A DNA stretch of 32,000 bases from Promethearchaeia archaeon (GTDB lineage: Archaea > Asgardarchaeota > Lokiarchaeia > Sigyniarchaeales > SOKP01), in the NCBI GenBank assembly GCA_046497275.1, contig JAWOFX010000007.1, positions 1 through 32,000 on the forward strand, in the 5' to 3' direction. Both the position numbers and the translations under genes were made by a program. The notes under the pieces were generated by a model, which saw only the letters and a program-made list of their open reading frames with translations, did not search any database and was not told where the DNA came from. Each line of letters starts with the position of its first letter. The stretch's first letter is position 1. Shown one piece after another: positions 194-22,491 of the stretch.

Positions 194-2485
194 ATGGATA
201 ATAGGGATTTAAGACTTTCTTGCGATTCGGGTCGTAGAAGATGTTCTGCCAATCATTCAGATATTTTTAGAGATGATAATGTTTTCATTATAAAACGGGA
301 ACGCATTGAAAAAATGGAATCGATGAGTGAAGAAAAAGGGCGTTATTCCGCCGAATCAGTGCGAATATCTCGGTCAAGATTTGCTTTAAGTGGATTGGAT
401 CGCCTTGCTAACCGCTCTCGAGCACTCGCAAACGATACTTTATATTTTTTGCGGCAGTATTATTTTTTTCATAATACAAATGATCCCGAGATAAGGGCAC
501 TTTATCGTAGAAATATAGGTAATAAATTTTACAAAACCATAAAAGAGTCCGAATATCCTAATGAGAAAAAAAATGCCGCTGTAGTGATTTTGAAAGACTT
601 ATTTGTTAAATTAAAGGCGTTGAAGAGTATTGTTCCAACGATAATGAAATTTATGGAATCCTACAAGGACATAGGATATTCTCCTTGTGCTCAAGCGATC
701 GTTAAATCCGTGTGTGAAACTTTTATCAGTCATCTAAAATTAATAGAGGAATGGGAAAACGCCCCCAAAAATCAACGCGAACAAAAACCATCACGACCTG
801 GTCTACCCCGATATTTTGGCAAAAAGATAGCGGGAGAGCGAGTGGGAAAGTGGAAATTGATTTATCCGAAGCAAAGGCTCGCTCACGCTGGGAACAAGGA
901 AAGCAAGGATAAGGCCCTCGAAAACCAGCAATATACTTGCTATATGTATGTGCCACCCTCATACGATCATTTAATCCCCCGAATACGAGTCAGAACAAAA
1001 GTGCTATCTCAATTGCTCAAAAACGGCGGGTTTGTGGAGATTATTCCTTGCGAGAAAAATTACTCATTTAACATCCAATATATCAAGACCAAAGAACAAC
1101 GAGCAAGAGAATATGGTTTTGATATCAATAGACACGAGAAAAACCCTAATCGAGCCATTTCTATCGACTTCGGAGTAAATAATTTCCTCACAGTTTTTAA
1201 CAATTTTGGTGCGAGATTTCCTATCTTTAGCGGATCAATGTTAAAGCGTTGGAACTATAGGATAAATCATAATATTCCCACACTACAACGTCGTGCTGAC
1301 GTGATTGCCGATGTGATAAAGCGATATGAAGAAACGGAAGCTCCATTAGAATCAATCATCAATTCTCGAATTCAAACCTATCACGACGAGTTCGGGAAAT
1401 TGAAAAGAATGATTCTCTATATTTTTAGGAAAATTTCTAATCTTTCAAGATTAGATATTAATAATTTAGACAATCAAGCCATTGTTCTCAAATGTTTTCG
1501 TTCCAAATCATTTTTTAAGATAGTAAAAAATACAAATTGGAACGATTTCAAGAAACTTGCTGAAAAGAACGGTCAGAGAATCTATAAAGGCATTTTTAAT
1601 AAAATTAGGAAAATTATCTTGATGGAGATTGCCCCACGTGAAAAGAATTCTCTCTTGCATAAGTATTTTCGCTATTTACAGAGTAAAAGAGATCGTAAGA
1701 TGAAAATTCTCAAAAAAATTTTAGGATATTCAATTCAGGATTTACAAGATTATTTGGAATCACTTGGGTTAAGGATTGATGAATTATGGGACAAATATGA
1801 CAGAGTGAAGAGAGATTCCATTAATAAGATTGCCAAAAAGTTAATGTATTATTGTTTATATTATAAAGTAGGAACGATTACTTTCGGTTATAATAAAGGT
1901 TGGCAAAATCAACGCAATAAAAAGATAAAATTGAATAAATTAACCAGAGATTTATTCGTTTCATTGCCATTTAACCAAATGTTCGAGAGAATTCAGCAAG
2001 AAGCGATTTATTTTGGAATAAATCTGGATTATACAACCGAATGGTATACCAGCAAATGTTCATATATCGACGATGAATCAATTGGGAAAAAACCAAATGA
2101 TGAATATATTGGATTACGCAGATTTACCCAGAACGGAGTAAAACATAATGGGTTATTTCGATCAAAGGACGGAAAAATCATTCACGGAGATATCAACGGT
2201 GCGGCTAATATCGGTAGAAAACAACATCCAAAATTATTTTCCAAACGAATGATCGCCTATATCTTATGTTTGATTTCCGATCCTCGCCGACGCCTAACCA
2301 ATCAAGCAAAACAAAGGGTTAATAAATTTATCACTACCCCGCCCATAAAATTTTCCCCTTCAAATGGAATTCCTACCAAAAAATTGAAAAGAAAAGAAAG
2401 GTTAAATAAAAGTAAGGTTAGACCACAAAGGCATCAAATGAGTCCAAGTAAATTTTTGGAAAAGACTCAAACTGCCTATGTGTAG
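194..2485 (+). CDS. tnpB: Large TnpB-family RNA-guided RuvC endonuclease (likely real start ATG 314 or 323)
   Basis: N-terminal LANRSRALANDTLYFLRQYYF and PGLPRYFGK motifs. RuvC-I AISIDFGVNNF (D325). The canonical RuvC-II position reads TITFGYNKGWQ (G instead of E), followed by TEWYTSKCS (E616). RuvC-III GLFRSKDGKIIHGDINGAANIGRK (D666). Confidence 0.85.
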   Translation: MDNRDLRLSCDSGRRRCSANHSDIFRDDNVFIIKRERIEKMESMSEEKGRYSAESVRISRSRFALSGLDRLANRSRALANDTLYFLRQYYFFHNTNDPEIRALYRRNIGNKFYKTIKESEYPNEKKNAAVVILKDLFVKLKALKSIVPTIMKFMESYKDIGYSPCAQAIVKSVCETFISHLKLIEEWENAPKNQREQKPSRPGLPRYFGKKIAGERVGKWKLIYPKQRLAHAGNKESKDKALENQQYTCYMYVPPSYDHLIPRIRVRTKVLSQLLKNGGFVEIIPCEKNYSFNIQYIKTKEQRAREYGFDINRHEKNPNRAISIDFGVNNFLTVFNNFGARFPIFSGSMLKRWNYRINHNIPTLQRRADVIADVIKRYEETEAPLESIINSRIQTYHDEFGKLKRMILYIFRKISNLSRLDINNLDNQAIVLKCFRSKSFFKIVKNTNWNDFKKLAEKNGQRIYKGIFNKIRKIILMEIAPREKNSLLHKYFRYLQSKRDRKMKILKKILGYSIQDLQDYLESLGLRIDELWDKYDRVKRDSINKIAKKLMYYCLYYKVGTITFGYNKGWQNQRNKKIKLNKLTRDLFVSLPFNQMFERIQQEAIYFGINLDYTTEWYTSKCSYIDDESIGKKPNDEYIGLRRFTQNGVKHNGLFRSKDGKIIHGDINGAANIGRKQHPKLFSKRMIAYILCLISDPRRRLTNQAKQRVNKFITTPPIKFSPSNGIPTKKLKRKERLNKSKVRPQRHQMSPSKFLEKTQTAYV

Positions 2486-2543: not shown

Positions 2544-3452
2544 TTAAAATGCATTGCCTTCTTTTTTTTCCATATCTGAAATACGGTTTTCTAAAAGAGT
2601 TATGGTTTCGATCAAATTATTTATTTTTACATTCAGTTCTTGTACTTTATTTTCGATTGCTCCTATTCTATTCAAGGCCCAATTCAGAGAATTATCCTCT
2701 TCGTTTGGTTTTATTAACCAATTAAAAATATTTTTTATAAATTTACGATTCTCTAATTGATTTATTCCAAAATTAGGGTCTTTTGAAAATATATCTACAT
2801 CTCCAAGAGCAACTATTTTTCCTTTACCATAAGTTGAACAAGCTGAAAGAACATATTTCTCTTTTTTTTGATCTTGATCCCAATCATTAATCGAAGGATT
2901 ATATCTCTCTGACCATACATTATTGTTCAATTCAAGCAATATAATGGCATTACCCTTCAATAATATTGAACATGATCCTCCTATAACTACCTCTCTTAAT
3001 TGGTGAGTTATATCATGTTCTGGAAAAGATTTTATATTAAGGATACTTGTACTGTTTTGATCTAATTCTATTTTTTCCTTCAATATGGTTTTTTCAAAGA
3101 AGATATCAAAATATTTGCCCGAAATATCGTTAATATTTGTTTTTTGGAGAGGATCTCCTCCATATTCACTAATTAGAAGTAATGAGCCTCCTTGTTTAAC
3201 AAAATCTATAATATTATTGATTTCCGAACTTGAAAAATAATCATTTATAGGATTGCCTATGACCAAAATATCTACATCTATTAATAACTCATCAGTAATA
3301 TCAGAATTCTCATTTTTTATAATATCTTGATTAAGAGTTTTAAGGAGATTTAAAAAGTCAGAGTATTCACTTTCAGAGAGATTAAGCATTTCATTATGCG
3401 ATACATCAAATAAAATAGTGGATCTTTTTGAAAATGACATTATATAATCCAA
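2544..3452 (-). CDS. GIFT/DUF4350-like (GldG/IFT52-type, class I GATase-like fold) protein with C-terminal coiled coil
   Basis: ILFDVSHNE ... DILVIGNP ... FSSSEINNIIDFVKQGGSLLLISE ... GKGKIVALGD ... NRKFIKNIFNWL pattern, then heptad-rich tail (aa ~255-298). Confidence 0.6.
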   Translation of the reverse strand: MDYIMSFSKRSTILFDVSHNEMLNLSESEYSDFLNLLKTLNQDIIKNENSDITDELLIDVDILVIGNPINDYFSSSEINNIIDFVKQGGSLLLISEYGGDPLQKTNINDISGKYFDIFFEKTILKEKIELDQNSTSILNIKSFPEHDITHQLREVVIGGSCSILLKGNAIILLELNNNVWSERYNPSINDWDQDQKKEKYVLSACSTYGKGKIVALGDVDIFSKDPNFGINQLENRKFIKNIFNWLIKPNEEDNSLNWALNRIGAIENKVQELNVKINNLIETITLLENRISDMEKKEGNAF

Positions 3453-12942: not shown

Positions 12943-14349
12943 TTACATTTTATTAAACTGTTCTTTTCTTGCGCCACATACGGGACAAACCCAACCATCA
13001 GGAATTTCCTCAAAAGGAGTTCCTGGTTCTATACCACCATCGGGATCTCCTTTAACAGGATCATATACATATCCACAAACCGAACACCTATATTTCCCCC
13101 CAAGTTCTTCAGAAGTCTTACTTATTTCCTTTTTCTCGGTGGGTTCTACTTTTGATTCCTCAGAAATTTCTCTAGATGGCAAATCATATAGATTAGGCAT
13201 CCCATGTTCATACTTCTTCATTGCATGTCGAGAGATGACTATCCGCTGAATTTCTGATGTACCCTCATAAATCTGAAAGAGTTTGGCATCTCTAAATAAT
13301 TTTTCTACTGGATATGTCTTAATATATCCGTATCCTCCAAAAATTTGAATCGCTTCCGTAGTGACTTCCATTGCTACATCAGATGCAACCGCTTTGGCAC
13401 ATGCGGAACTAATATTGTTATCTATTCCCTGATCAGCCTCCCATGCTGCTCTATAAGTCAATAACCTTGCTGCTTCAATATTTTTATACATTTCTGCAAT
13501 CTTAAACTGTATAGCTTGATAGTGATCAATACTTCTGCCAAACGCTTCTCGTGCTTTTGCATAATCAATTGAATATTCCATCGCTGAACGAGCGCATCCT
13601 ACAGCAAAAGCCCCAATCGCTGGACGTGTATTAGCAAATGTTTGCATAGCGAGAACAAATCCATAACCGGGTTTAGCTAGAACATTCTTCTTTGGAACTC
13701 GAACGTCATTCAATACCACAGAACATGTGTTTGAAGCTCTTTGCCCTAACTTTGGGATGTGTGCTCCGGTTCTAAGTCCTTCTGAATCAGTTGGAACTAT
13801 AAACGCGCAAATACCCCTATGCCGTTTTTCTGGATCAACAGTCGCGAAAACAGAGATGTAATCAGCATATCCAGCATTTGTAATCCAATATTTCGTTCCA
13901 TTTAATATGTAATCATCTCCTTCTTTTTTAGCTCTACATTGCATACCAGCAACATCAGAGCCCATACCTGGTTCTGAAGTTGCAAATGAGATTAATTTAA
14001 ATTCGTTAACCAATTCTGTCAAAATTCTTTCTTTTTGTTCTTTATTACCTCCAAGAACTATAGGTTCAGATCCTAAATTATTATCAAAAATAGAAGTTGC
14101 TATACCCGGACAAGCGGCAGCTATTTCTTCTACAACAATTACTGCTTCTAATAACCCTAATCCTGGACCTCCATATTCTTTAGGAATTCCTAAATTCAAT
14201 AAATCTTCTTCCCATGCTTTTTTAATAACTTCCATCGCCATAGTATTTTTTTCATCATAGTTTCTCGCAACTGGCAATACTTCTCTTATTGCAAATTCAC
14301 GCGCTCTTTTCTTTAGTTCTTTTTGTTTATCAGTTAATTGAAAATCCAT
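12943..14349 (-). CDS. Acyl-CoA dehydrogenase fused to a C-terminal rubredoxin
   Basis: [49 protein letters not shown]. Tail (12943-13095) [13 protein letters not shown]...[18 protein letters not shown] is a textbook rubredoxin. Confidence 0.92.
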
Positions 14350-14491: not shown

Positions 14492-15784
14492 TTATTTATC
14501 GATTTTAGAGCCACATACTGGGCAATAGAGTGATTCTTTAACGGTTGCTCCACATATTGGGCAAAGTTTAAGAGAGATTTTAGCTCTTGGAGGTTTTAAA
14601 GAGCTAATTGAGATTTCTTCTTGGTCTTTATTTTGGATCATTTCTGTGGCATTCTCTTGAATAGAAGAACTATTTAAAGTAGATATATCAATTTCAGTTC
14701 CAAAAAAACCACCAACTTTTACCTTTTTTTTTAATGGTGTGAACTTTTGGCTTTTCATTTCATGTTCATCTTCAGTAAAATCTTCTTCCGGAATATACTC
14801 CTCTGGTATTCTATACCTTTCCGGTTCTTCTGTCTCCTCTTGAGTTTCCTTAGCCATTTCTTTAATAATAGTCTCAACAAAATCTTTATCTAATTTTAAT
14901 AATGCTCCACACCTAGGACAGCGAAAAATATTGGAAAATCCAATTTTATTTGTTATTGAATATTCTGCAGCACAACAGCTATGAAAAGGAGCATTACAAT
15001 TATAACATTTATGCACCTCATCACTATAAGTCTCACATATTGGGCAAATTTCTTCTTCACATATTACACAAATGGTCTCATCTTCAAGGGAAATAGAAAT
15101 TAGATCAGTAGCTAATTTCTCATAGAATGTATAATCTTCTTCTAATATTCTATTTGTCTCTGTTTCTAAAATATTAACGTTTTCTTGAGCTTTAACCAAG
15201 GAGTTTAAATAAGTGTTGAGATTTTTGCGATCATTACAATATAATGTAGCTCCAAAAGTCTCGCTTGTGATAACCTTAAGCTTCACATCATCATCATAAA
15301 ATTTCTCCTCCCCCAATCGAATAATATTGATTTTTGTGGAAAAATTCTTAGCTTTCAAAATTAGATTATATAAAGCAGTGTGGTATTCATCTGATAAATT
15401 GCTAACAGAATCCGAAAATATGATTACTTGGTAAATTTTAGATTCTTTTCTGCTTCTTTTAAAAATATGTGCCAATATTTCATACAAACCGTTTTCAAAA
15501 TAACTTTGCTCTTCATCTTTCTCATCCCATAATTCATTAATGGTATTTATTAGATTTTCAGCGTTTTTATCATACAAGGTAAAAAGGTCTTTTCCCTGTT
15601 GAAAAAGAACTAAGCTATAAGTGACTTTTTTATTTAATTCGCTTTTTTCTTCGATAAATGAATCTATAGCTTTAAATAAAGTCTTCTTTTTTATGAAATC
15701 GGTAGTTATATCTAAATAAAAAATAATTTCTTCCGAATTTGTTGAAGTGTTCCTCTTATTATCCATCCTATTACTATTCCCCAA
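14492..15784 (-). CDS. vWA-like domain + C4HC3 RING/PHD-like finger + C-terminal zinc ribbon (likely start ATG 15766)
   Basis: IIFYLDITTD (degenerate MIDAS strand), QVIIFSDS, INIIRLG. Then CVIC-x4-CPIC-x9-CYNC-x4-HSCC-x17-CPRC, and a final CPIC...CPVC. Confidence 0.65.
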   Translation of the reverse strand: MGNSNRMDNKRNTSTNSEEIIFYLDITTDFIKKKTLFKAIDSFIEEKSELNKKVTYSLVLFQQGKDLFTLYDKNAENLINTINELWDEKDEEQSYFENGLYEILAHIFKRSRKESKIYQVIIFSDSVSNLSDEYHTALYNLILKAKNFSTKINIIRLGEEKFYDDDVKLKVITSETFGATLYCNDRKNLNTYLNSLVKAQENVNILETETNRILEEDYTFYEKLATDLISISLEDETICVICEEEICPICETYSDEVHKCYNCNAPFHSCCAAEYSITNKIGFSNIFRCPRCGALLKLDKDFVETIIKEMAKETQEETEEPERYRIPEEYIPEEDFTEDEHEMKSQKFTPLKKKVKVGGFFGTEIDISTLNSSSIQENATEMIQNKDQEEISISSLKPPRAKISLKLCPICGATVKESLYCPVCGSKIDK

Positions 15785-16041: not shown

Positions 16042-16542
16042 TTATTGATTATCGTTAATATCCTTTTCCAATTTTCTATATATTAATTTATTTTCTTTCT
16101 TAACAACTTTATAAGTTTTTCCGAAAAAACCACCGATACGTATCAATTTTTCATCTTCATAATCACCTTGCGAATTATTTTCATTTTCTTGGTTCTGGAG
16201 ATTATATTCGTGAAAATCAATTGGTTCTGGAATATTAACTTTAGGGAGGTTTATTTTTTTTTCACTTAATTTTTTAGATTGAGAAAATGTATCAAAATTT
16301 TCCTTTTTTTCTCTTTTTGATGGCTTTAAATCCTCTTTTTTAAGCTTTAGAAGACTACCACATTGAGGACATCGGAATATAAATGGAATTCCTATATTAT
16401 GATCAATTGAATAATCTAAAATACAACAATTATGAAAAACTTCTCCACAATCCTCGCAAATTTGGGAGAGAGCATTCCGTTTTATGAAATTTTTGGTTAA
16501 ATCCAAATAAAAATAAATTTCTTCTCTTTTTTTCTCTGGCAA
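16042..16542 (-). pseudogene. Tandem paralogue of 14492-15784 with an in-frame internal deletion of ~220 aa (CDS or pseudogene)
   Basis: EEIYFYLDLTKNFIKRNAL matches EEIIFYLDITTDFIKKKTL and is joined directly to CEDC..FHNCC..YSI...IG...IFRCPQCGSLLKL, which matches CYNC..FHSCC..YSI...IG...IFRCPRCGALLKL. The GGFFG motif is shared. Confidence 0.6.
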
Positions 16543-19782: not shown

Positions 19783-21111
19783 TTGATAAAAACCATTCTT
19801 AGCTACGTCCTAAAAATGTCTGATGCAGAATATCAAAATTTCATGGTCTTTGAACTATTAGACAACGGGGAGAGACAAAAAATTGAAGTAGATGAAGAAG
19901 ATTTACAATCCATCCTCGCTCCAGAACAGGTTTTCGTTATTTTAAATGAAGAAATAAGAAGAATTTATATCTGGAAAGGAGCAAAATCGCCTGTCCGGAA
20001 AAGATTCATAAGTTCACGTGTTGCAAGTGGTCTGCAAGAGGAATTAGTAAAAGTAGCTGCTTATCACCGATGTAAGATCGTAAGTGTTGACCAAGGCGAT
20101 GAACCTATTGAATTTTTGCAAACCTTCAATTTAGAATCAATGGAAGTCAAAGAAAGAGCAAAAGATATGAGATATATTCGAAATATTGATAAAGATCCTA
20201 CTATAGCTAAGGGAAGAGTAATTGAAAATGGAAAAATTCAAGTAGAGGAGGAGGAAGAGTATTATTCCCCAGCTTTGGAAGAATTGAAAAAAAAAGGGGT
20301 AGATATCTCCGTAGAGATGTCCAAAACAAGCTTAGATCCCTCCTCCGCGATATCATCTCCTAGAACAGCTAAAAAGCCTTATAGTCCACCAGGGAGCACC
20401 CCTCATAAACAATTCTCAGAGAGAAAATTAAACAAAAAAAAAATTATTGAGAAAATATTACAGCAAGAATTACTTGAAGACCATGAAAGGCAGAATCTAG
20501 TAATTGGAACCGAACTTTACGGATCAACTTCCAAAACAACAAATGTGTTTGGTGATGATATAGAAGAGATAGAATGGGAAAGAATAAAAAAAGTACCTGA
20601 GGGCATATATTTATTAGAGAATTATATTTTTCGAATCTATTTCGATAAAGATGCTGGGATAATAGAGGGTATTGAAATTTTAAAAAGAAAAACCAATGGA
20701 ACTGCTTCTTCGATGAATAAAACCTCTATTATAATGCCAAAAAATGGAGATACTCTTTCTGAAAAAATTTTAGGGATTGAATTGCCAAAAAATTATAATA
20801 GAGAAAATTTAATCATTGGACATCAATTATATGGTGCGATATCAAAAAAGGTGGAAGTTTTTGGAGAGAAGCAAACGGAAACAGATTGGGCCTTGGTAAA
20901 AAAAATTCCAAAAAATATAATTATTTTAGATTCTCATTTGTTTCGAATATATTTTAACCATGAAAATGAGACGGTAGATGCGATAGAGATACTTAAAAAA
21001 GAATCAAATAAAAAAAACAAGAATTATACTAAAAAACCATTACAAAACAAAGAAGAAAAGCCAAGATCGAATACTAAACGAAATCTACCTAAGATACCTA
21101 GCGCAGACTAA
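19783..21111 (+). CDS. Single gelsolin-domain protein with two tandem copies of an unrecognised 80-aa domain (likely start ATG 19816)
   Basis: VFVILNEEIRRIYIWKGAKS...IVSVDQGDEPIEFLQTF matches the gelsolin-repeat consensus. Internal repeats at aa 223-302 and 327-406. Confidence 0.75.
   Translation: MIKTILSYVLKMSDAEYQNFMVFELLDNGERQKIEVDEEDLQSILAPEQVFVILNEEIRRIYIWKGAKSPVRKRFISSRVASGLQEELVKVAAYHRCKIVSVDQGDEPIEFLQTFNLESMEVKERAKDMRYIRNIDKDPTIAKGRVIENGKIQVEEEEEYYSPALEELKKKGVDISVEMSKTSLDPSSAISSPRTAKKPYSPPGSTPHKQFSERKLNKKKIIEKILQQELLEDHERQNLVIGTELYGSTSKTTNVFGDDIEEIEWERIKKVPEGIYLLENYIFRIYFDKDAGIIEGIEILKRKTNGTASSMNKTSIIMPKNGDTLSEKILGIELPKNYNRENLIIGHQLYGAISKKVEVFGEKQTETDWALVKKIPKNIIILDSHLFRIYFNHENETVDAIEILKKESNKKNKNYTKKPLQNKEEKPRSNTKRNLPKIPSAD
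20449..21000 (+). repeat. Intragenic domain duplication (20449-20688 and 20761-21000)
   Basis: Ungapped hand alignment gives 36/80 identical residues. Confidence 0.9.
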
Positions 21112-21181
21112 TTATAAATTATTTTATTTTATTAAACCAACATTCCCAACTTCTTTTGATGATTATTTTGTTTGATTAATT

Positions 21182-21192
21182 AAAAAAAAAAA
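21182..21192 (-). terminator. T11 tract on the minus strand, probable terminator of the MFS gene
   Basis: A11 on the + strand, about 10 bp past the stop codon at 21202. Confidence 0.4.
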
Positions 21193-21201
21193 TTTATTTG
21201 A

Positions 21202-22491
21202 TTATCTTTCTATTTTAATTTCCTTGGCGAAAATAAGAGGAATCAGTGTAATTAAAGTAACAAATGCTGCTACATAAAATAATAGATCTGGAGGGACTAA
21301 GACGGGTGTCCCATCAAAAATTGCTTCTATACCGTATAGTGTATAAACCGTTCCGCCTATTATTGGCCCGATTATCATTGGGATTGTCCCCGAAAACAAG
21401 TTCCAATAACCGCTAAATTGCCCTCGTCCTTCTGGAGGGTATAAATCTTTTACCCAGGTGAAAGTACTAATTGATAGACCTGTATAAAATACAAAAGTTA
21501 TGATCCCAGCTATAATTAGAGTAATTAATTCTGCTGAAAGTCCCAATAAAAAGGTTCCTATACTAAGGAAAAGAGTTGAAAGTATAGTCATTTTTTTACG
21601 TCCAAGTTTATTAGTTAATTTTCCCAATGGAATAGAAAGTATAATTGATATCACTATTGCTACAGCCATAATTATTAATCCAAAAAGCAAATCTCCTCCT
21701 CCTATGGTGTATCTCAAGTAAATTAATAGATAAGGAAAAAATACCATTAATCCTATTTGCCAAGCAGCAATTATCAGAAGCACTATTATAAAATTTTTAT
21801 AATCAACAGAAGATTGCTTTTTAAAAGTATTTCTAATATGTTGATATGTAGAAATGGTCATAGGTTCAAGATATTGAGAATCTTCGGTCCATCTAACCCC
21901 CAATAATCCAATGACTGCTACAAGTATTCCTATTATTATAAAAAAAATATAATATCCTATGAAATCAATTAATAACCCCAAAGCTCCATAAACTATTAAA
22001 AATGAAATTAGCACGGTTATTTGTACAATTCCCATGGCTTTACTTCTTGTTTTTAGAGTAGTTATGTCAGTTACATATGCATTAAGTCCAGCATTCTTTA
22101 CTGTGGCTCCAAACACCGTCATTATTGAGTCAAAAAGGATTGCCGTAAATATTACAATTCCAAAACCAAGAAACGAAAACAATGCGCTAACAGGAAATAA
22201 AGCAGTTGTGACAGCCCAGAAAATAGTTCCATATAACAATAATGGTTTTCTCTTTCCTATGATATCGCTATAGGAACCAATTATTATTGTGGTTACTGTT
22301 CCAACAATAGTTGTTATATTTACGAGAAGTGCAACAGCAAAAGGCACTAAATCTTTTTGTCCTAACCCAATTAAAGTCTCACTAAGGAAATCATTATAAA
22401 ACTGATTCTCTACCGCCCAAGCAATTTCACCTGCTAAAGAAATTAAAAAAACACTAATTGATATATTTCGAGTTAATTTATCTTCACTCAT
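21202..22491 (-). CDS. MFS transporter
   Basis: GSYSDIIGKRKP and GKLTNKLGRKK motif-A copies; about 12 hydrophobic segments. Confidence 0.9.
   Translation of the reverse strand: MSEDKLTRNISISVFLISLAGEIAWAVENQFYNDFLSETLIGLGQKDLVPFAVALLVNITTIVGTVTTIIIGSYSDIIGKRKPLLLYGTIFWAVTTALFPVSALFSFLGFGIVIFTAILFDSIMTVFGATVKNAGLNAYVTDITTLKTRSKAMGIVQITVLISFLIVYGALGLLIDFIGYYIFFIIIGILVAVIGLLGVRWTEDSQYLEPMTISTYQHIRNTFKKQSSVDYKNFIIVLLIIAAWQIGLMVFFPYLLIYLRYTIGGGDLLFGLIIMAVAIVISIILSIPLGKLTNKLGRKKMTILSTLFLSIGTFLLGLSAELITLIIAGIITFVFYTGLSISTFTWVKDLYPPEGRGQFSGYWNLFSGTIPMIIGPIIGGTVYTLYGIEAIFDGTPVLVPPDLLFYVAAFVTLITLIPLIFAKEIKIER

Follow-up and report, generated by a model that had tools for sequence, protein, structure and literature searches.

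The closest described relatives of the gene studied here are the one-domain gelsolins of Asgard archaea that carry an accessory domain X (1DGelX or GelX). In PMC7444086, the Thorarchaeota protein (Thor 1DGelX) is reported to bind actin with a Kd of 7.7 uM and to have nucleating, severing and bundling activities that need no Ca2+. ProGel, which has no X, is a very weak binder, with an affinity ~40-fold lower, and is without severing activity. The function of X has been in question since 2020. Akil et al. (2020, PNAS, PMC7444086) gave an I-TASSER prediction of X as a coiled coil and reported that X alone could not be expressed, and in bioRxiv 2025.11.30.690169 X is described as disordered and of unknown function. 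In L. ossiferum, B35_GelX was enriched in a Lokiactin co-IP; the row in the supplement of bioRxiv 2025.11.30.690169 was read as log2FC 2.28 with an adjusted p of 0.024, the table column having been fixed via the actin row (4.44).

In the window, i.e. the whole stretch of 32,000 nucleotides that was analysed, a genuine open reading frame is found at 19783-21111 on the + strand, opening with TTG 19783. ATG 19816 is the more likely start codon, since the closest homologues are 431 aa long and align with 100% coverage. The features of this gene, here termed GelXX, are as follows, with conservation given for 125 relatives.

19816..21111, +, whole gene: one-domain gelsolin with two X domains (431 aa from ATG 19816)
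about 19831..20133, +, gelsolin domain of ProGel/1DGelX type (Pfam, ProGel match, 32% identity to Thor 1DGelX)
20164..20184, +, non-canonical D-M-R-Y-[IV]-R-N motif, placed like the WH2-like LKKT motif (conserved in 122/125)
20245, +, acidic patch EEEEEYY (sequence motif)
20260..20286, +, Y-[YF]-S-P-x-L motif past the acidic patch (conserved in 114/125)
20287..20430, +, Ser/Pro/Lys-rich linker, poorly conserved in the alignment of relatives
20431..20691, +, first domain X, with its core repeat at 20449-20685: helix and five strands, long hairpin with Phe-Gly tip
20692..20742, +, short inter-repeat linker, partly conserved (pLDDT 73-78 in the tandem model)
20743..21003, +, second domain X, with its core repeat at 20761-20997 (repeat alignment, BLASTP)
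21004..21108, +, basic tail, net +8, with terminal R-x-L-P-x-I-P motif at 21079-21099 (motif in 117/125)

The architecture proposed in the sequence-only reading (one gelsolin domain, two repeats and a basic tail) was thus recovered, as were the DMRYIR segment, the EEEEEYY patch and the tail motif at 20164, 20245 and 21079.

GelXX is the sole + strand gene between two minus-strand neighbours, a CDP-alcohol phosphatidyltransferase upstream and an MFS transporter downstream, and the same flanks were seen in the two-copy relatives that were fetched. A single contig from an independent DNA study covers 20190-21393 with one difference and bridges both repeats. Together with the same two-copy layout in 26 other 90%-identity clusters, this indicates that the tandem repeat is not an assembly artefact. 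RNA-library contigs from two studies also span the gene, and these could represent DNA carry-over. A joint from 21017 to 20424 in one RNA run was rejected as spurious, being a joining of A-rich stretches beside adapter-ended pieces. A sigma-70 promoter scan of the locus stayed at chance level, the sigma-70 model being ill suited to archaea.

Elsewhere in the window, ORF 194-2485 (+) encodes a 763 aa IS605 OrfB / TnpB-Cas12f-like protein (PF01385, with PF07282 weak), and ORF 2544-3452 (-) a GIFT-domain protein IFT52 (PF23355, E 1e-13). The acyl-CoA dehydrogenase at 12943-14349 (-) carries a C-terminal rubredoxin domain, and a relative has the same fusion at the syntenic position. ORFs 16042-16542 (-) and 14492-15784 (-) are neighbouring paralogues of the vWA plus RING/zinc-ribbon type. 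The 166-aa member aligns to residues 1-31 and 250-388 of a 468-aa protein that occupies the corresponding place in the relative L156, so that it looks like an internal deletion from which the vWA part has gone.

Gelsolin domain, Ca2+ site and short motifs

The N-terminal region matched PF00626 with an E value of 0.0011 at 19.2 bits, slightly below the 21-bit cut-off. Against solved gelsolins the best match was Thor ProGel (7c2f, E 1.7e-5), followed by Heim2DGel (E 8.8e-5). This is the only gelsolin domain of GelXX; the repeats differ from gelsolin in the order of their secondary-structure elements.

The residue nine positions past the Trp of WxG, where the Glu of the type II Ca2+ site is expected, is a Lys (K73 when numbered from the TTG, 19999-20001). 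The sequence-only reading had singled out this substitution; it is real, but it is no special feature of the present protein, as Lys occupies the position in 116 of the 125 relatives, Gln in nine and Glu in none. Thor 1DGelX has Arg there, and ProGel has Lys. The missing Glu is in line with published work, in which the one-domain gelsolins of Asgard archaea are stated to have no Ca2+ sites, and GelXX is probably Ca2+-independent, as had been proposed, judging from the type II Glu position.

MRYI had also been likened to the WH2-like linker that follows the first gelsolin domain in other proteins. As regards position the comparison held: in 130/136 proteins the Met of MRY[VI] lies 18 residues past the Phe of the last helix. 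In four Thorarchaeota-family 2DGels the WH2-like motif, L[KR][KR]V, has its Leu at this same offset of 18; the corresponding offset is 19 in one Loki 2DGel and 22 in another. As regards sequence the comparison did not hold, the family consensus of [ML]-[RH]-Y-[VI] departing from the published definition of Leu, basic, basic, Thr/Val. The LVDV of a Loki 2DGel is a non-canonical WH2-like form able to bind actin, and MRY[VI] is a candidate variant of the same motif. No MRY[VI] motif was present in the Thor 1DGelX sequence. In the literature searched, the offset shared by MRY[VI] and the Thor 2DGel WH2-like motif is not described.

The C-terminal RxLPxIP string resembles a class I SH3 ligand (RxLPxxP) in the GelXX clade. 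In distant orthologues the first Pro is replaced by Lys and the string becomes more LKKT-like. An SH3 search (PF14604) of the same genome gave zero matches, and its controls were silent too. One single-X paralogue of this genome (L001:2177-3226, - strand, G000:C82) is without MRY[VI] and carries RxLPxIP directly after its gelsolin domain, at an offset of 16. Such a placement of RxLPxIP, after the gelsolin domain and not at the C-terminus, occurred in 1/177 proteins checked; this single case hints that MRY[VI] and RxLPxIP might share one binding site.

Identity, spread and predicted fold of the repeat

The two repeats align over 79 aa, ungapped, with 36/79 identical residues (45.6%); the best 79-aa window in 300 shuffles reached a maximum of 19 and a mean of 14.9, which bears out the duplication noticed in the sequence-only reading. 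When compared with Thor 1DGelX, a profile of the repeat aligned to residues 173-255 of KXH72031.1 (HHalign 97.8%, E 6.9e-13). In pairwise BLASTP both copies matched the same protein (E 4e-7 and 2e-4), with an X identity of 28%. KXH72031.1 (P0296) was taken as Thor_1DGelX on the basis of the supplement of bioRxiv 2025.11.30.690169; in the genome that holds the exact 7C2F ProGel the GelX gene is cut at a contig end, and the comparison was therefore made with the protein. From this alignment, the repeat is assigned to domain X of Thorarchaeota 1DGelX, of which it forms the folded core. The sequence-only reading had regarded it as a novel module, and since it matches an already characterised domain X, that claim has to be given up.

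The search of Asgard genomes with a repeat profile, which the same reading had suggested, revealed a wide distribution. A narrow profile built from 74 repeat copies matched 306 of 400 Asgard genomes, and a broader one matched 52/61 evenly drawn genomes and 27/28 of the high-quality ones. The carriers include a Thorarchaeota genome, Odinarchaeum yellowstonii, Freyarchaeum deiterrae, Promethearchaeum syntrophicum, L. ossiferum and Helarchaeota. An apparent lack of X in family f13 (narrow profile 0/31) proved to be a sensitivity artefact, the broader profile matching 3/3; families f23, f24, f25 and f33 gave no X match in the few genomes searched. A match of X to a plant-NLR-like LRR protein (P0257, E 4e-4) was attributed to chance.

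Of the 77 cluster representatives long enough for the test, 76 have X behind a single gelsolin domain. Genomes of the Thorarchaeota family encode 2DGels and short ProGels besides one long protein with a single gelsolin domain, and it is this long protein that bears X. The present genome encodes five X-bearing gelsolins, of which GelXX alone has two copies and the other four are single-X. MK-D1 has four X-bearing genes, compared with the two 1DGelX reported. In L. ossiferum, B35_Gel1 (UYP47899.1; L098 / P0405), to which bioRxiv 2025.11.30.690169 ascribes a gelsolin domain and a disordered domain, contains a clear domain X (E 1e-15), and the X of a third gelsolin of this species (UYP48730.1; L101 / P0407) is divergent. 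Other arrangements were observed as well. P0256 combines an N-terminal X with an unrelated zinc-ribbon-containing region and has no gelsolin domain, and may be a mis-called start or a chimera. In P0259 (Helarchaeota) a Gel-X part is followed by a long coiled coil. Rho_N/HeH modules are frequent in the tails of single-X relatives. In the present genome, one single-X gelsolin lies ~4 kb from a divergent actin-family gene (G000:C180:11182-12030 and C180:16325-17407).

A structure model of the repeat, also suggested beforehand, was beta-rich as expected. AlphaFold2 predicted one helix and five strands (pLDDT 92.9, pTM 0.80, five of five models in agreement), with a long hairpin whose tip is a near-invariant F/L-G. 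Searches with X against Pfam and solved structures led to no clear family assignment, and structural neighbours of the model with a TM above 0.5 were confined to models of Asgard gelsolin clusters. The helical X domain named in the sequence-only reading derives from the I-TASSER coiled-coil prediction and disagrees with the AlphaFold2 model, which gives an ordered alpha/beta fold; in Thor 1DGelX only one helix follows the homologous part. The model thus calls the coiled-coil prediction into question and leaves membership of the 1DGelX/GelX family untouched.

For the tandem X1-X2 the model reached a pLDDT of 80.6 and a pTM of 0.66 with an ordered linker, but it was built from 29 sequences and two of the five models failed (pLDDT 46 and 41). 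It hints that X1 and X2 may be packed on each other. Complex prediction for the homodimer of a single-copy X gave 0.31 against a mark of 0.42, with controls at 0.00-0.01, a value that speaks neither for nor against a dimer. Mean net charge was -2.3 for X1 and -3.3 for X2. In the two-copy clade the hairpin of either copy carries about -3.3, compared with about 0 in single-copy relatives, and the conserved surface positions differ between X1 and X2.

Duplication history and possible roles of the second copy

Two X copies were present in 26 of the best 120 homologous clusters and one copy in 94. Among the matches listed, tandem pairs occurred in at least 11 genomes of four genera within one family. 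The 27 sequences of two-copy relatives have diverged to ~50% identity with the invariant residues kept in each copy, and both copies look maintained. In a 174-row tree computed in quick mode, X1 and X2 of 27 proteins formed separate clades (SH-aLRT 99). A more careful tree of 43 rows, which left out most single-copy rows, recovered the X2 clade (98/91), and X1 was unresolved at the root under midpoint rooting. The separate clades suggest one old duplication with retention of both copies.

Two further two-copy proteins, P0122 (L157:1815-3143) and P0127 (L160:3001-4443), are more distant and fall inside a different clade (99/93). Both genes adjoin an AbrB/MazE-PhoU gene. The AU test rejected a single origin, with p 0.0009 for all first copies together and p 4e-13 for all second copies. 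The separate clade and this test suggest at least two independent duplications; X has apparently been duplicated in tandem at least twice and possibly three times, with gene conversion between the copies as the alternative to repeated duplication. The tandem form is thus judged to be real and recurrent.

GelXX very probably regulates actin (Lokiactin) in the way Thor 1DGelX does. This reading is based on the match of X to Thor 1DGelX, the co-IP of B35_GelX, the missing Ca2+-site Glu, the offset of MRY[VI] and the presence of Lokiactin in the genome. Across the family, Lokiactin sequences are 95-99% identical; this genome encodes two close paralogues with 81% identity (G000:C156:92403 and C84:44108; L120, L121), besides more divergent actin-family genes.

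By homology, the gelsolin domain would sit in the cleft of Lokiactin between subdomains 1 and 3 with no need for Ca2+, and the MRY[VI] segment would run along the LKKT site of actin, as the WH2-like linker of the 2DGels does. X would then direct the protein to the filament side, as hypothesised by Akil et al. (2020); that X binds filament sides directly has about an even chance of being right. Two X domains on a flexible linker could provide more avidity or bridge two filaments, shifting the balance of severing, nucleation and bundling known for Thor 1DGelX, and the basic tail may add weak electrostatic binding. The most likely explanation, which we hold with middling confidence, is that GelXX severs, nucleates or bundles actin without need of Ca2+ and that its filament-targeting modules are doubled. 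Several points count against this explanation: the acidity of X (-2.3 and -3.3) is untypical of F-actin side binders, the co-IP of B35_GelX indicates neither direct contact nor the binding domain, the gelsolin domain is just 32% identical to the assayed Thor protein, and MRY[VI] lies outside the published WH2-like definition.

Other roles of X were also considered. X might self-associate, dimers of single-X proteins showing two gelsolin domains and XX being a single-chain pseudo-dimer or a chain-forming unit. Two gelsolin domains per dimer would account for nucleation and bundling, and recurrent tandem duplication with a short linker is, by our inference, often seen in homodimer domains. The pTM of the tandem model with its ordered linker is above the ~0.5 that serves as a rule of thumb for two free domains, and X1 and X2 keep different surface positions. 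The small alignment and the failed models behind this prediction speak against such weight being placed on it, as does the available text of PMC7444086, in which no oligomeric state is given for 1DGelX, and self-association is considered rather unlikely. Somewhat less probable still is an anchoring role, in which X would tie the gelsolin domain to a partner protein, or to a membrane by way of the Phe-Gly tip of the hairpin, and the doubling would give a double anchor. The long hairpin with its near-invariant tip would suit this role, and according to PMC7444086 GFP-1DGelX was located at nuclear-envelope/ER-like regions of U2OS cells with weak filament association. The Rho_N/HeH tails of single-X relatives imply that the family tethers elsewhere. 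On the other hand, the hairpins of the two-copy proteins are acidic, which argues against binding to anionic lipids here, and the locus holds no co-oriented partner gene.

The duplication may also be near-neutral, with GelXX working exactly like a single-X GelX. The prevalence of single-copy clusters and the four further single-X gelsolins of this genome would fit such a view, but both copies are intact in at least 11 genomes of four genera among the matches listed, their invariant residues have outlasted the divergence of the 27 sequences, and the duplication recurred, the AU test rejecting one origin; this explanation appears improbable. Compared with all of these, the doubled filament-targeting module is preferred. 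A broader proposal goes beyond it, namely that X is a domain of undescribed fold, specific to Asgard archaea, that binds actin filaments (or pairs with itself), and that its repeated doubling in Lokiarchaeia converted a severing GelX into a bivalent filament cross-linker with a non-canonical WH2-like linker. We regard this as speculative and rather doubtful. If true, a new actin-regulator function would have arisen by multiplying an accessory domain and not the gelsolin domain.

Comparison with known gelsolin systems

The 1DGelX/GelX family and its domain X are already known, and GelXX is a lineage-level variant of them, not a new system. In the text of the literature searched on GelX and domain X, neither a two-X form nor a beta-rich fold of X is described. 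For X there are now boundaries (about 85 aa), an alpha/beta model of high confidence and a distribution that is nearly pan-Asgard; it also occurs in proteins not called GelX (B35_Gel1), with as many as five X-bearing genes in one genome. The X-X tandem found in nature and the one-copy orthologues in cultured strains offer a dose series of 0, 1 and 2 copies for the role of X.

On its sequence, GelXX is a member of the Lokiarchaeial 1DGelX/GelX family in which X has been tandemly doubled. The Lokiarchaeial subfamily is marked by MRY[VI], Y[YF]SPxL and the C-terminal RxLPxIP at the frequencies listed above. The gene is assigned as the orthologue of L. ossiferum B35_GelX (UYP44381.1), with which it shares 37% identity over 325 columns, the three motifs and the domain order. 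MK-D1 DSAG12_02979 (QEE17147) belongs to the same subfamily. Unlike GelXX with its two copies, both of these proteins are single-X.

Thor 1DGelX resembles GelXX in having one gelsolin domain without a Ca2+ site, a low-complexity linker, an X and a basic C-terminus. GelXX differs from it by the second X and by MRY[VI], YYSPAL and RxLPxIP, whereas Thor 1DGelX has an amphipathic helix after X. Thor ProGel (7C2F) is the best solved gelsolin match and shares the Lys at the Ca2+-site position, but it consists of that domain alone and lacks linker, X and tail. With the Asgard 2DGels (7C2G/7C2H/7WHF/7WHG) and eukaryotic gelsolin, GelXX has in common the gelsolin fold and a conserved four-residue motif equally spaced after the first domain. 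These proteins possess two or more gelsolin domains and GelXX possesses one; in the former the gelsolin domain is doubled and controlled by Ca2+, whereas in GelXX a non-gelsolin domain is doubled and the type II Glu is missing.
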